Positions 13,433-24,178 of a stretch of 32,000 nt of DNA are shown here, piece by piece. The stretch is from Candidatus Saccharimonadota bacterium (GTDB lineage: Bacteria > Patescibacteriota > Saccharimonadia > Saccharimonadales > UBA4665). Made by a program: the position numbers and the translations under genes. The first letter of the stretch is position 1; each line of letters begins with the position of its first letter. Location: the NCBI GenBank assembly GCA_016699935.1, contig CP064992.1:540001-572000 (forward strand). The letters are read 5' to 3'. The notes beneath the pieces were generated by a model. The model ran no database searches and was not told the DNA's origin. It was given only the letters and a program-made list of their open reading frames with translations.

Positions 13433-16260
13433 ATGGCGAGACTTACGTTTACTGAAGCACAAAATCATGTAGCTGATATTGCCAATCGTGAAACTTATAC
13501 TATCGACTTCGTTTACGAATTGCTTGCTACTTATGGACGGGCAAGATCTGCCATTACTAAATTACGTGAAGGTTCGTTAAATCTTGCTGAAGATAAAGAC
13601 AATGAAATACTACAAAGGGGAGTAGTCTACTTCAAGCATGTGTCAGACCTAATAAGCTACACTCTACTGCTGAAGAATTGGCGGTAGACCCGTTAGTTGT
13701 TCGCTATAACCCTAGATATTTGATTATTTCTGACTATGAGCGACTCGTAGCAGTTGATACTAAGAAGGACAGCCGTCTCGATATTAATCTCGAGATATAG
13801 ATCGTGATGTAGATTTCTTCTATGGCTGGACGGGTGATGAAATCACTGACGAAAAGACCGAAGCTGTAGCAGACCGTCGTGCTGCTGATAAGATGAAAGA
13901 TCTGTACGCTGAGATCGAAAAGGTTAATCGTGCAAAGCTTGCTGACCCACATAGCAACTTCAGGCATGACTTGAATGTATTCTTTAGCCGCTTACTATTC
14001 TGTTTCTTCGCAGAAGACACTAGAGTGTTTAGTCGTGATGAGCAAGCGATGTTCACGAATGCCATCAAAGATTACACTCAAACCGATGGTAGTGATCTAG
14101 ACACATTTTTGATAACTCTGTTTGATGCACTCGATACGCAAGATAAGTCTGGATTTACGAGTCCTTTCAGTAAGTTCCCATACGTCAACGGTACGATCTT
14201 CGACACCAAAAACACAGTATTGGTATTCCAAAGTTTAATGCTCAAGCACGTAAGCTCATTTTAGATTGCGGTAATCAGAATTGGGCTGAGATTAACCCTG
14301 ACATTTTCGGTTCTATGTTCCAGAGCATTGTTGATGAAGTGCAACGAAGCAGTCACGGTCAGCACTATACAAGTGTACCGAACATCATGAAGACTATTGA
14401 ACCGCTCTTTCTTGATGAGTTACGTGAAGAATTTGATAAGTACTATGACAATACTCAGAGGCTCGAAAGGCTTTGGAATAGAATCAGCAAGATCAAAATC
14501 TTTGACCCTGCTTGTGGTAGTGGTAACTTTTTGATTATTGCGTACAAAGAACTTCGTAAAATTGAACACGCCATCATTGAGAGACTATACGGTGACGAAC
14601 ACAAACGCCAGCAGTTAGCAGGAAAGCTTGAATCTCGAATTAAGCTAGATAACTTCTATGGTATCGAGATAGATGATTTTCCGCACGAGATCGCAATTCT
14701 TTCGCTATACCTTGCTAAGCACCAAATGAACATCGACTTCGAAAAGCAGTTTGGTAGAGAGATTAAGCTCATTCCACTTAAAGATAATGCAAACATTATT
14801 CATGGTGATTCGACGATACTAGATTGGAAAGATGTGTGCCCTAATCTACCTCATAAATCTGGTGTTAAGACTGGACCAGAGCAAGGTGCATTAATAGATT
14901 TTGACGATGAACCTCTTGAGCTTGAGCTGGAACAAGAGTCTTGGGATGAGATTTACTTGATAGGCAATCCACCATACTTAGGTTCTAGCCTTCAAGATCA
15001 AACGCAAAAAGCTGGAATGGCACGTGTGTTCAAGAACTTCGGTAACTATAAAAATCTTGACTTCATTGCTGCTTGGTTGAAGCTCGGTGCTGACTACATC
15101 AAGGGCACTAATGCTAAGCTTGCATTCGTATCGACCAAGTCGATCTGCCAAGGTGAACAGGTCGAGTTAATTTGGCCTTATTTACTACATGACACAGAGA
15201 TTGGCTTTGTTCATAAACCTTTCAGATGGACAAATAATGCCGTAGGAGCAGCAGCCGTAGTATGTATTATACTTTCGCTACGCTCGCCTAATTCAAAAAG
15301 AGCAGCATATATTTATGATCAGAACATTCGTCAAGAAGTTCAAAATATTAGTCCGTATTTGATTGAGTCAAAGAACGTGATAGTCAAGTCAAGGAGGACC
15401 CAAATATCTGGCTTGTCTGCGATGGTGTATGGGAATAAGCCCGTAGACGGCGGCCACCTGTTCTTGACTTTAGACGAGAAGAATTTCCTGACTGATACGT
15501 TTCCTGAAACAGTGCCTTATATTAAAAAGTAATTGGGGGAAGGAGTTCTTGCACGGTATAGATCGCTGGTGTCTCTGGTTACCGAAAGGTGTTGACTATG
15601 AGAAGCTATCCCATATCCCTTAATTGTTGAAAAATCGGTAAAGTAACTGAATTCAGAAAAGCCAGTAAAGACATAGGTGCTCAAAAATTAGCACTTACCC
15701 CTTATAGATTTAGGGATATGAATAATCCTGATACTTTCATTGTCGTACCAAGAACTACTTCCGAAAATAGGGATTATATTCCTTTTGCTTTCTATACTAA
15801 TGACACAATTGCAATTGATAGCTGTCAGACGATTCCTGGTGCAAACCTATCTGATTTTGCTGTAATCACATCAAAGATGCATGTTTCATGGGTTAGAAAG
15901 GTAGCAGGTTACTTAGGGACGAGTTTCCGATATTCATCAGCTATTGTTTATAACAATTATCCCGTACCTGTATTATCTGACTCCCAAAAACAAGCACTAT
16001 CAGAGCAAGCACGAAACGTACTAATAATACGTGAAAACCATAGCGAAAAGACGCTCGCTGAAATGTACGATCCCGATAAGATGCCAGAAGATTTACGTCA
16101 AGCTCACTATGAATTAGATCTTGTAGTAGATAGATTGTATCGCTCTAAGCCTTATAATTCAGATGAAGAGCGACTAGCAGATTTATTCGCACTGTACGAG
16201 CAAATGACTGAAAGGAGAAATCAAAATGAACGAAGAAACATTGAACATCATCGACGTTAA
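13433..16260 (+). CDS. MmeI-family (type IIL/IIG-like) N6-adenine DNA methyltransferase, possibly a fused restriction-modification enzyme; about 8 frame breaks in this assembly
   Basis: Family blocks recognised across frames are listed in order:
- NPRYLIISDYERLVAVD
- FFSRLLFCFFAEDTRVF
- FSKFPYVNGTIFD
- INPDIFGSMFQSIVD...GQHYTSVPNIMKTIEPLFLDEL
- SAM motif I, IFDPACGSGNFL
- catalytic motif IV, IGNPPYLGSS
- the TRD-region block GIDRWCLWLPKG
- C-terminal DLVVDRLY

The reconstructed length of about 940 aa is comparable to MmeI. Confidence 0.85.
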
Positions 16261-22697: not shown

Positions 22698-24178
22698 TGA
22701 TGATGCAACTATCAAAATCTGATTACATGCTTTATCTCGCACACCCTGCATGGTTGTGGATGAAAAAACATGCAAAGACCTTACTGCCAGCTATAGACCC
22801 TGCAACACAAGCAATTTTCGATACTGGTCACGAATTCGAACAGTACGCAGAAGCTTTATTCCCAAGTGGTGTCACGCTTGGATTTAGTGATTATGATGAG
22901 TATCTTTCATTACCTGAGAGGACCACACGGGCACTAGACGATGGAATTCTCACGATATTTCAGGGTAGATTTGAGCACGAACAACTAACTTTTATTTGTG
23001 ATGTGATTCAGGTCGTTGATGGTAAAGAGATTGACCTGATTGAGATTAAGTCGAGTACAAGTGCTAAGCCTGAGCATATTACAGACCTTGCGTTTCAGAT
23101 GTTCGTTTTAGAAAAGTGTGGGTATACCGTAAGAAATGTAGCGGTAGTACACGTCAATAATCAGTATGTTCGTAATGGTGAAATTGACGCTAAGCAGATC
23201 ACGTTTAGAACTGATGTCACTGATGCAGTTAAGGCTGCGAAAGATTTTACGATAACAAAGATCGACGAAGCATTAGAAACAATGTCTCTGACTGAATGCC
23301 CAGATGCATCTCCTCTACATGCGAGCACTAAATCATTTGGTGATTGGTTGCAAATTTACAAACACTTAAAGAACCCAAAGGCTGGAAGTATTTACGACTT
23401 ATGCCAGATGGATGCGAAGACATTAAGTAACCTTCAACAAAATAACATTACACACGTAAAAGACATTCCACCTGACTTTGTTCTGAAGCCAAAGCAACGA
23501 CTTCAAGTTGAGGCACTTCGACAGGGAAGACCTACGATCAGTAAAGACAAAATCAAGTCATTCTTAGATTCATTTAGCTACCCTCTATACTTTTATGATT
23601 ACGAAACATTAAGTAGTTTAGTGCCTTACTTTGATGGTCTAAAGCCTTACCAACAGTTACCGTTTCAATATTCGATTCATATTTTAGACAGCCCAGATGC
23701 AGAGCTAAGACATGAAGAGTTCTTGCATCGTGATAGTGCAAATCCTGCTGAAGCACTAACGAAATCTCTCGTCTCACATATAGGGGATGAGGGGACAGTA
23801 CTTGCGTGGAATATGGGTTTTGAAAAGAGCTGTAACACATTACTTGGTACGATAGTGCCAGAGTATGCAGATTTCTACAGTAAGCTTAATGAAAGAATTG
23901 TAGATCTAATGATTCCTTTCTCGCAGAATTGGTATGTTGATGCTGATTTTTGTGGGAGTGCATCTATCAAGAAAGTCCTACCCGTACTCGTACCATCTCT
24001 GTCACACAAGGACCTAGATATTTCTGATGGTAGTTCAGCTCAGAGGCTATGGATGGAAGCTATTCTTGATGGGAAGCGACCTGACGAAAAAGAAAAGATT
24101 CTTAATGACTTGCTCGATTATTGTAAGCTCGACACACTTGCTATGGTTGAAATATTTAACGTTTTACGAAAAATATAG
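22697..24178 (+). CDS. DUF2779 domain protein (RecB/Cas4-like PD-(D/E)xK N-terminal part and an RNase-H-fold-like C-terminal part)
   Basis: Intact 493-aa ORF. The N-terminus LSKSDYMLYLAHPAWLWMKKH is the typical DUF2779-family start. It also contains EIDLIEIKSSTS and the C-terminal YFYDYETLSSLVPYFDGLKPYQQLPFQYSIHIL. Its start overlaps the upstream stop (TAATG). Confidence 0.7.
   Translation: MMMQLSKSDYMLYLAHPAWLWMKKHAKTLLPAIDPATQAIFDTGHEFEQYAEALFPSGVTLGFSDYDEYLSLPERTTRALDDGILTIFQGRFEHEQLTFICDVIQVVDGKEIDLIEIKSSTSAKPEHITDLAFQMFVLEKCGYTVRNVAVVHVNNQYVRNGEIDAKQITFRTDVTDAVKAAKDFTITKIDEALETMSLTECPDASPLHASTKSFGDWLQIYKHLKNPKAGSIYDLCQMDAKTLSNLQQNNITHVKDIPPDFVLKPKQRLQVEALRQGRPTISKDKIKSFLDSFSYPLYFYDYETLSSLVPYFDGLKPYQQLPFQYSIHILDSPDAELRHEEFLHRDSANPAEALTKSLVSHIGDEGTVLAWNMGFEKSCNTLLGTIVPEYADFYSKLNERIVDLMIPFSQNWYVDADFCGSASIKKVLPVLVPSLSHKDLDISDGSSAQRLWMEAILDGKRPDEKEKILNDLLDYCKLDTLAMVEIFNVLRKI

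Follow-up and report, generated by a model that had tools for sequence, protein, structure and literature searches.

Homologues of MmeI fall into two groups, with or without an endonuclease motif, and genes of the group without the motif are 'invariably' flanked by those of a DEAD-type helicase, YeeB, and a GIY-YIG protein, YeeC (Morgan et al. 2009; PMC2731913). No endonuclease activity of YeeA, the MmeI-like member of this trio, was found in vitro, and Morgan et al., who drew the analogy with type I and type ISP restriction-modification (R-M) systems explicitly, proposed that the MmeI-like subunit supplies specificity and modification while the helicase and the nuclease cut (PMC2731913). The Bacillus subtilis homologue, DnmA, places N6-methyladenine (m6A) at GACGAG (PMC9973331), and yeeAB of Vibrio crassostreae 7F1_18 confers resistance to one phage group (bioRxiv 10.1101/2021.05.05.442762); among the papers available to a literature search, none after 2023 characterised YeeABC. 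The present analysis concerns a block of six genes at 13433-24178 on the + strand of a 32,000-nucleotide stretch of DNA, referred to as the window, from a Candidatus Saccharimonadota bacterium (contig CP064992.1, positions 540,001 to 572,000). By homology and gene order, genes 1-3 of the block are a YeeA/DnmA-YeeB-YeeC system, and they are followed by a GmrSD-family enzyme, a Shedu-like nuclease and a DUF2779 protein. With a probability of roughly 0.8, the block is a defence island of separable modules carried on a Saccharibacteria integrative element. What is supported directly is homology, synteny, modular distribution and the conservation of catalytic motifs, which are present in all six proteins.

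The original prediction, made from the letters of this DNA, had held that the triad of methylase, helicase and T5orf172 protein had no assigned defence role. That view is outdated, the YeeA/DnmA-YeeB-YeeC system having been described in 2009 together with a proposed mechanism (PMC2731913) and already assayed in B. subtilis (PMC9973331) and V. crassostreae (bioRxiv 10.1101/2021.05.05.442762). By its own terms the prediction would also be refuted if the operon turned out to be named already, which is the case for half of the block, genes 1-3. The Pfam assignments that it gave for all six genes were reproduced by Pfam.

The first gene, yeeA (13433..16260, + strand; Pfam and MmeI alignment), had been described as a methyltransferase; it does encode an N6-adenine methyltransferase, but not a plain one, the product being a dnmA-type, five-domain, MmeI-like protein of both modification and specificity. 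In the intact relative L004 (L-numbers denote the compared loci) the five domains are MmeI_N, the helicase spacer, the methyltransferase, the target recognition domain (TRD) and the C-terminal domain, and the fragments of the window gene return Pfam MmeI_Mtase at 314.6 bits together with MmeI_hel, MmeI_TRD and MmeI_C, with the motifs FDPACGSGNF and GNPPY present. YeeA aligns to MmeI (PDB 5hr4) with an E value of 3e-171 (phmmer), and the alignments begin at query residue 88-89 and MmeI residue 102-105, past the PD-ExK site. Across 43 homologues no conserved D...ExK motif was found in the YeeA N-terminus, whose first ~90 residues conserve DFIYELLAAYGR, LNLA and VVYFK. Because this N-terminus is unaligned and PD-ExK is lacking, YeeA belongs to the second MmeI group of Morgan et al., and its alignments mark it as an MmeI-like protein whose PD-ExK nuclease site has been lost. 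An assignment of gene 1 to the MmeI-type single-chain enzymes of type IIL/IIG was rejected, the nuclease motif being missing. Automated tools would probably call YeeA type IIG all the same, because the PADLOC REase_MTase_IIG model PDLC03598 matches it at 440 bits. The TRD part of YeeA (window 15244-16007) has no match to L004 at the DNA level and 56% amino acid identity to it, against more than 90% for the rest, and its closest relatives are in L012 (86%) and L007 (80%). This pattern suggests that specificity domains recombine between near-identical YeeA systems.

The second gene, yeeB (16226..18200, + strand), assigned by homology to YeeB, encodes a superfamily 2 (SF2) helicase with the motifs KAPPASGKSR, DEFHH and QIIGRCTR. 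Its largest window fragment is 56% identical to B. subtilis YeeB (E 9e-176) and 48% to V. crassostreae YeeB by BLASTP, and the intact L004 helicase reaches 57% and 49%; the reference YeeB and YeeC sequences were those of Fig S5 of PMC9973331. The third gene, yeeC (18200..19363, + strand; Pfam and homology to YeeC), encodes 387 amino acids with a C-terminal T5orf172/MUG113 domain of the GIY-YIG superfamily, has the invariant residues G253, Y256, G277, R286 and E347, and is 35% identical to B. subtilis YeeC (E 3e-62) and 31% to V. crassostreae YeeC (E 8e-46). The YeeB and YeeC alignments to the proteins of both species are full-length, with E values down to 1e-176. Because the profile libraries PADLOC and NCBIfam hold no YeeC model, and YeeB draws from them only faint matches to the helicase cores of PbeA, Dnd-restriction or Cas3, the triad was identified by way of the literature. 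Four other multigene systems, BREX, DISARM, Hma and MADS, were rejected, no partner model (PglZ/BrxC, DrmA/DrmB, HmaA/HmaC or MAD) being matched by the other five proteins; the methyltransferase core alone gives weak PglX, DrmMI or mad2 matches (E 1e-11 to 1e-5). A helical module of ~54 residues is common to the C-terminal tail of YeeB (18015-18200) and the N-terminus of YeeC (18290-18440), the two matching at an hhalign probability of 92% (E 5e-7). The B. subtilis YeeB protein stops partway through it, and the window and V. crassostreae YeeB proteins keep it. The module may mediate assembly.

An alignment of YeeC homologues led to 53 loci from a species-representative genome set, in which neighbouring genes were determined by tBLASTn and clustering of open reading frames (ORFs). 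The A-B-C order and strand are kept in essentially every one of the 53 loci with enough flank, and the same order is seen in 7 viral contigs. The taxa concerned are Saccharibacteria, other Patescibacteria, Actinomycetota (Trueperella, Actinotignum, Curtobacterium), Bacteroidota, Desulfobacterota, Chloroflexota, Proteobacteria, Clostridia and others. The gap between YeeB and YeeC is at most 32 nt in 58 of 58 loci, with overlap in 44, and by this synteny the two are an obligately coupled pair; the YeeA-YeeB junction is tight in 38 of 52 loci and interrupted by 0.4-2.6 kb of other genes in 14. YeeB and YeeC are never separated. Inserts between yeeA and yeeB occur in Bacteroidota and some Proteobacteria, and they comprise a helix-turn-helix (HTH) protein with a Doc/Fic toxin, a RhuM-family gene (PADLOC PDC-S05), and Schlafen AlbA_2/HATPase_c_4 genes, in L045 (6419-7924), L048 and L053; L044 (2146-3147) and L046; and L035 (6315-7973), L040, L043 and L050. 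Two triads are decayed: in L032 (9992-11260; Actinotignum timonense) YeeC is in two pieces, and in L026 (9695-10630; a metagenome-assembled genome (MAG) of Nanoperiomorbaceae) an N-terminal remnant of YeeA and a C-terminal fragment of YeeC stand beside a GmrSD-like gene. The question raised by the original prediction, whether these genes co-occur elsewhere, has a divided answer, in that genes 1-3 travel together across phyla but genes 4-6 do not.

GmrSD and Shedu are established stand-alone defences. In the window the former is a GmrSD-family (DUF262 + DUF1524) type IV restriction-like enzyme (19360..21543, + strand; Pfam, PADLOC), in which GmrSD_N (117.7 bits) and GmrSD_C (76.5 bits) both exceed the Pfam cut-off within one chain; it matches the PADLOC Orf5 and HEC-06 models and carries the motifs DGQQR and EHVMPQ (His-Me C-terminal domain DUF1524). 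The latter is a Shedu SduA-like (DUF4263) nuclease (21546..22697, + strand; Pfam, PADLOC), with 41.9 bits to Pfam SduA_C (cut-off 27), a PADLOC SduA match of 1.1e-13 and a D...ELK motif; it occurs independently of the genes beside it. GmrSD lies 3' of the triad in 4 of the 53 loci (L002-L005) and Shedu in 2 (L004, L005), the two being missing from ~90% of triad loci. The slot between YeeC and DUF2779 contains nothing in L011 and L042, GmrSD in L002, GmrSD with Shedu in L004, L005 and the window, Thoeris ThsB-ThsA-ThsB in L007 and L009 (11195-13040), a full-length Avs4 (1970 bits) in L012 (11236-15981), and a UvrD/GajB-like helicase in L013 (11385-13043). A GmrSD_N-HEPN fusion stands in the slot 3' of yeeC in L016 (11168-13381). 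Relatedness is equally uneven along the block: relative to L004, amino acid identity is 99-100% for YeeB, 97% for YeeC and 95% for Shedu, and 57% for GmrSD, 58% for DUF2779 and 56% for the TRD part of YeeA, while the closest GmrSD is in L003, L002 or L059 (84-85%) and the closest DUF2779 in L011-L013 (81-82%). Because the identities are mosaic and the closest relatives lie in different loci, the six genes have several separate histories.

The G+C content falls from ~0.48-0.50 to ~0.40 between ~7.5 and 28 kb, and the block is placed on an integrative element because this low-GC stretch extends from a serine recombinase and a primase-like gene to a copper module. The element backbone includes a large serine recombinase gene (7448-9052, - strand; translation) and a Toprim primase-like gene with two frameshifts (9428-11603, - strand; translation, and Pfam on the intact L005 homologue). 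At the end of the element a 3.6-kb CsoR-DUF305-copper ATPase module is bracketed by the copies of a 45-bp perfect direct repeat (24170-24214 and 27794-27838), the first of which overlaps the last codons and stop of DUF2779; the repeat as originally described was confirmed, with its start at 24170. The first ~30 nt of the repeat are also present at the DUF2779 3' end in L004 and L005, which have no copper module at that point, and by its flanks the module looks like a cassette insertion with target duplication. A partial inverted copy of the repeat (89%) is found at 9458-9484, at the 3' end of the primase-like gene.

The layout of the block was largely as first described. The ORF list and the sequence bear out six co-directional genes on the + strand over 13433-24178, the AT-rich non-coding leader of ~485 bp 5' of yeeA spans 12948..13432 (+ strand; 1-kb window GC 0.355-0.384), and the junctions TAATG at 18198-18202, ATGA at 19360-19363, a 2-nt gap at 21543/21546 and TAATG at 22695-22699 were all reproduced. 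The exception is the 35-nt overlap reported at 16226/16260, which is a product of a 1-nt deletion at ~16214 (GGG to GG). In the intact L004 the yeeA/yeeB junction is a 4-nt ATGA overlap, and the alignment indicates that in the window, too, the true yeeA stop probably overlaps the yeeB ATG in this way. Nor is the packing exceptional, as had been claimed in calling it beyond the usual loose clustering of defence genes, such a layout being ordinary where a compact genome carries a defence island; by crude longest-ORF calling, about half of the same-strand neighbouring ORF pairs in the compared loci are no more than 5 nt apart, and unrelated genes of the window overlap too (for example, 277-615 and 612-1052). 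The top promoter-like site of the leader, a consensus match only, is at 13370-13397 (TCTACA-16-TACAAT). Promoter-like sites in the region number 25, against 31.4 +/- 4.6 in shuffles, with no excess, and the counts from promoter and terminator scans, being at or near the shuffled expectation, are uninformative. We infer co-transcription of the six genes from the upstream leader. No near-identical DNA turned up when the block was compared by Megablast with collections of plasmids and of E. coli genomes, and the window gave no hits in scans for tRNAs and Rfam families.

How such an island would operate can be outlined module by module. In the first, YeeA would recognize a sequence and protect it with m6A, probably on one strand of an asymmetric site, and YeeB, an SF2 ATPase, would be recruited with YeeC, the GIY-YIG/T5orf172 nuclease, to unmethylated sites, from which the pair would translocate along foreign DNA and cut it, as Morgan et al. 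proposed; the segment shared by the YeeB tail and the YeeC N-terminus may serve assembly. GmrSD, in the variable slot, would form a second module acting as an independent single-gene type IV restriction enzyme on modified DNA, and Shedu, in the same slot, a third, an independent single-gene defence that would add a further layer. The fourth module would be DUF2779, at the downstream edge of the cargo slot, whose role is possibly a general one.

Several observations weigh against reading the block as a defence island of separable modules. YeeABC of B. subtilis had no effect on phage or transformation and showed no restriction (PMC9973331), and because that system is inactive, defence is not universal in the YeeABC family. 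No known fold was matched significantly by the AlphaFold2 model of YeeC (mean predicted local distance difference test score 72.8). Two further MAG loci (L004, L005) have precisely this order of six genes, intact, and DUF2779 comes after the triad in 12 Patescibacteria loci, distant ones included (L033, L042, L019), so some functional link between YeeABC and DUF2779 is conceivable. Lastly, YeeA and YeeB are frameshifted in this assembly, and the core system may be dead here.

The frameshifts raise the alternative that yeeA and yeeB are true pseudogenes, a decayed R-M relic beside which only YeeC, GmrSD, Shedu and DUF2779 still function. Neither gene is one ORF: single-base indels split yeeA into at least 6 frame segments, and yeeB is in 3. 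Mapped against intact L004 (85-91% DNA identity), with L012 used for the TRD, the indels of yeeA number at least 6 (~13649, 13791, 14213, 15523-15537, 15617-15631 and 16214), and yeeB has 1-nt deletions in A-runs at ~16436 and 17955. Their distribution favours decay, genes 1-2 (4.8 kb) carrying at least 8 single-base indels and genes 3-6 (6 kb) none, a split with a probability of ~7e-4 under even spread (our own calculation), and Fernandez et al. considered B. subtilis YeeABC a relic (PMC9973331). Their nature speaks for another origin. The resolvable indels relative to the intact relatives are all 1-nt deletions, several of them in homopolymers, and the aligned yeeA and yeeB segments contain no in-frame stop codons. 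Between yeeB and its L004 counterpart 92 of 1374 nt differ, giving 87 synonymous and 2 non-synonymous codon differences, and because of this ratio the codon pattern signals strong purifying selection on yeeB up to the present. The primase-like gene at 9428-11603 has a similar defect, two frameshifts relative to the intact L005 protein, and tlyA, ychF and copA are apparently split too (612-1326, 6373-7450 and 25723-27735), as seen from ORF layout and translation only. The region 18200-24178 and the serine recombinase gene show no frameshifts, unlike the split genes of the window. Split genes across the window point to an indel-prone assembly, and the frameshift pattern fits error-prone long-read assembly or, at most, very recent inactivation. 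We infer that the frameshifts are sequencing errors, and regard a pseudogene origin as unlikely.

A second alternative concerns the last gene of the block, DUF2779 (22697..24178, + strand; Pfam), whose product, a UU173-like Cas4-exonuclease fusion, has a Cas4-like PD-(D/E)XK N-terminal part and a DEDD-type exonuclease-like C-terminal domain. It scores 132.4 bits with Pfam PF11074, gives weak Cas4 matches at 7e-4, and has the invariant residues D102/E116/K118 and D301/E303 in the alignment, in keeping with the published view of the fold as a Cas4-like nuclease fused to a DEDD-type exonuclease (PMC13621843, PMC3985635). YeeABC and DUF2779 might form a four-gene system in Patescibacteria, or a system with a dedicated accessory nuclease, framing an internal cargo slot, an arrangement comparable to BREX, Hma or type I R-M loci that have defence genes inside them. 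The 12 loci in which DUF2779 accompanies the triad are all Patescibacteria and range in T5orf172 identity from 36% to 97%; YeeABC and DUF2779 are directly adjacent in L011 and L042, DUF2779 is divergent upstream in L019, and the YeeA-to-DUF2779 block stands on two backbones, one with serine recombinase and primase (the window) and one with terminase and ParB-methylase (L007, L012 and viral L134). Approached from DUF2779, the association is rare. A metagenome scan found more than 570 DUF2779 relatives, of which 80 were kept, and among the ~31 loci with at least 6 kb upstream only 1 (L059) has YeeABC upstream of DUF2779. The same-strand genes upstream of DUF2779 include type I HsdM/HsdR, a type ISP-like methylase with SIR2 and HerA, an N6_N4 methylase with ResIII, UvrD-like helicases, Thoeris, GmrSD, DUF499, and the housekeeping genes rpoC-dnaG-rpoD or clpB. 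DUF2779 is in 0 of ~28 triad loci outside Patescibacteria. A homologue is quasi-essential in JCVI-syn3.0 (PMC13621843, PMC3985635), which suggests a general role in DNA metabolism, and because DUF2779 follows rpoC-dnaG-rpoD in contigs of the candidate phyla radiation (CPR), the family is not confined to mobile elements; in L074, L084 and L092 these genes stand directly 5' of it (about 540-11500). A dedicated four-gene system is decidedly improbable on this balance, and in the island of separable modules DUF2779 marks the conserved right boundary of the cargo slot.

The last alternative, a single integrated machine of methylase, helicase and four nucleases under obligate co-expression, has in its favour six co-directional genes with overlapping or abutting stops and starts and the same order in L004 and L005, but is very hard to credit given that GmrSD and Shedu, stand-alone defences as families, are missing from most triad loci, where other systems take the same slot, that GmrSD and DUF2779 occur together without YeeABC in L054, that each gene has a different closest relative, and that tight packing is common between unrelated genes of these genomes. 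Of the two possibilities left open by the original prediction, the evidence fits layered systems and not a single system of many components.

Part of this architecture is borne by prophages, because a terminase-containing left flank is found in Saccharibacteria loci and in the viral contig L134. In this arrangement a terminase large subunit, an HTH protein and a ParB-domain DNA methylase on the minus strand are followed by variable defence genes on the plus strand, with DUF2779 last; the loci concerned are L134 (a 37-kb IMG/VR uncultivated virus genome), L007, L009, L011-L013, L063, L065, L118 and L131. The hotspot of L118 is nearly empty, holding one 370-amino-acid ORF. By gene content, a family of Saccharibacteria (pro)phages appears to have a defence hotspot in the region from terminase to DUF2779. 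As a tentative and rather improbable extension, a defence hotspot of Saccharibacteria and of CPR bacteria more widely, partly on prophages, could have DUF2779 as its generic partner or anchor at the downstream end, with both the restriction-type systems upstream of it (YeeABC, type I, type ISP-like) and the cargo (Thoeris, Avs4, GmrSD, Shedu, SIR2-HerA) being exchanged. If this were true, DUF2779 could be a shared accessory nuclease, for example one that processes restriction products in genomes without RecBCD.

Two further repeats lie elsewhere in the window. Tandem GC-rich copies of 96 nt (1775-1870 and 1879-1974) are 97% identical, have internal hairpin-like segments and give no Rfam match. 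A perfect 30-nt inverted repeat (245-274/561-590) has one arm just 5' of, and the other inside the 3' end of, a small UPF0213-like GIY-YIG gene (277-615).

The analysis removes a false lead, in that there is no novel system of six components and the parts can now be named. YeeABC, known since 2009, is widespread and reaches the ultrasmall CPR bacteria and their prophages, and its loci tolerate cassettes embedded between yeeA and yeeB. The interest that remains is in how cargo slots are arranged around YeeABC and DUF2779 in CPR bacteria and their prophages, and in the mechanism of YeeABC. For the latter, leads are the module that the tail of YeeB has in common with the N-terminus of YeeC, which is cut short in the inactive YeeB of B. 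subtilis, and TRD swapping, which points to diversifying specificity. CPR genomes are poorly charted for defence, and the cargo slots are practical places in which to seek new defence genes there. To our knowledge, a frame of YeeABC and DUF2779 in CPR bacteria has no prior description.

Compared with known systems, the window triad is closest to YeeABC of B. subtilis and V. crassostreae (Morgan et al. 2009; Nye/Fernandez et al. 2020-2023; Piel et al. 2021), with which it shares the same three proteins in the same order, homology over their full length, and a YeeA without PD-ExK. B. subtilis YeeABC also lies, like that of the window, in a low-GC, horizontally acquired region beside recombinase genes, and the YeeB of V. 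crassostreae, where the system is protective, has a long C-terminal tail that window YeeB keeps. The window differs from these in its Saccharibacteria (CPR) host, in the GmrSD, Shedu and DUF2779 genes downstream in the same orientation, in a TRD 56% identical to that of its closest relatives when the rest exceeds 90%, and in reading frames that are broken in the assembly. With MmeI (PDB 5hr4), the helicase-spacer, methyltransferase, TRD and C-terminal domains align, but the first ~88-100 residues of YeeA do not and D-ExK is absent, cleavage presumably being left to YeeB and YeeC. Type I and type ISP R-M systems are similar in combining a methyltransferase/specificity part with an SF2 ATPase and a nuclease; in contrast to them, the triad has no HsdS or HsdR, its nuclease is a separate GIY-YIG protein and not a PD-(D/E)XK domain fused to the motor, and single-strand modification is expected for YeeABC. 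In its wider layout, the island resembles loci with embedded defences, such as BrxU in BREX, those embedded in Hma, and the P2/P4 hotspots, in which a conserved frame encloses swappable cargo.

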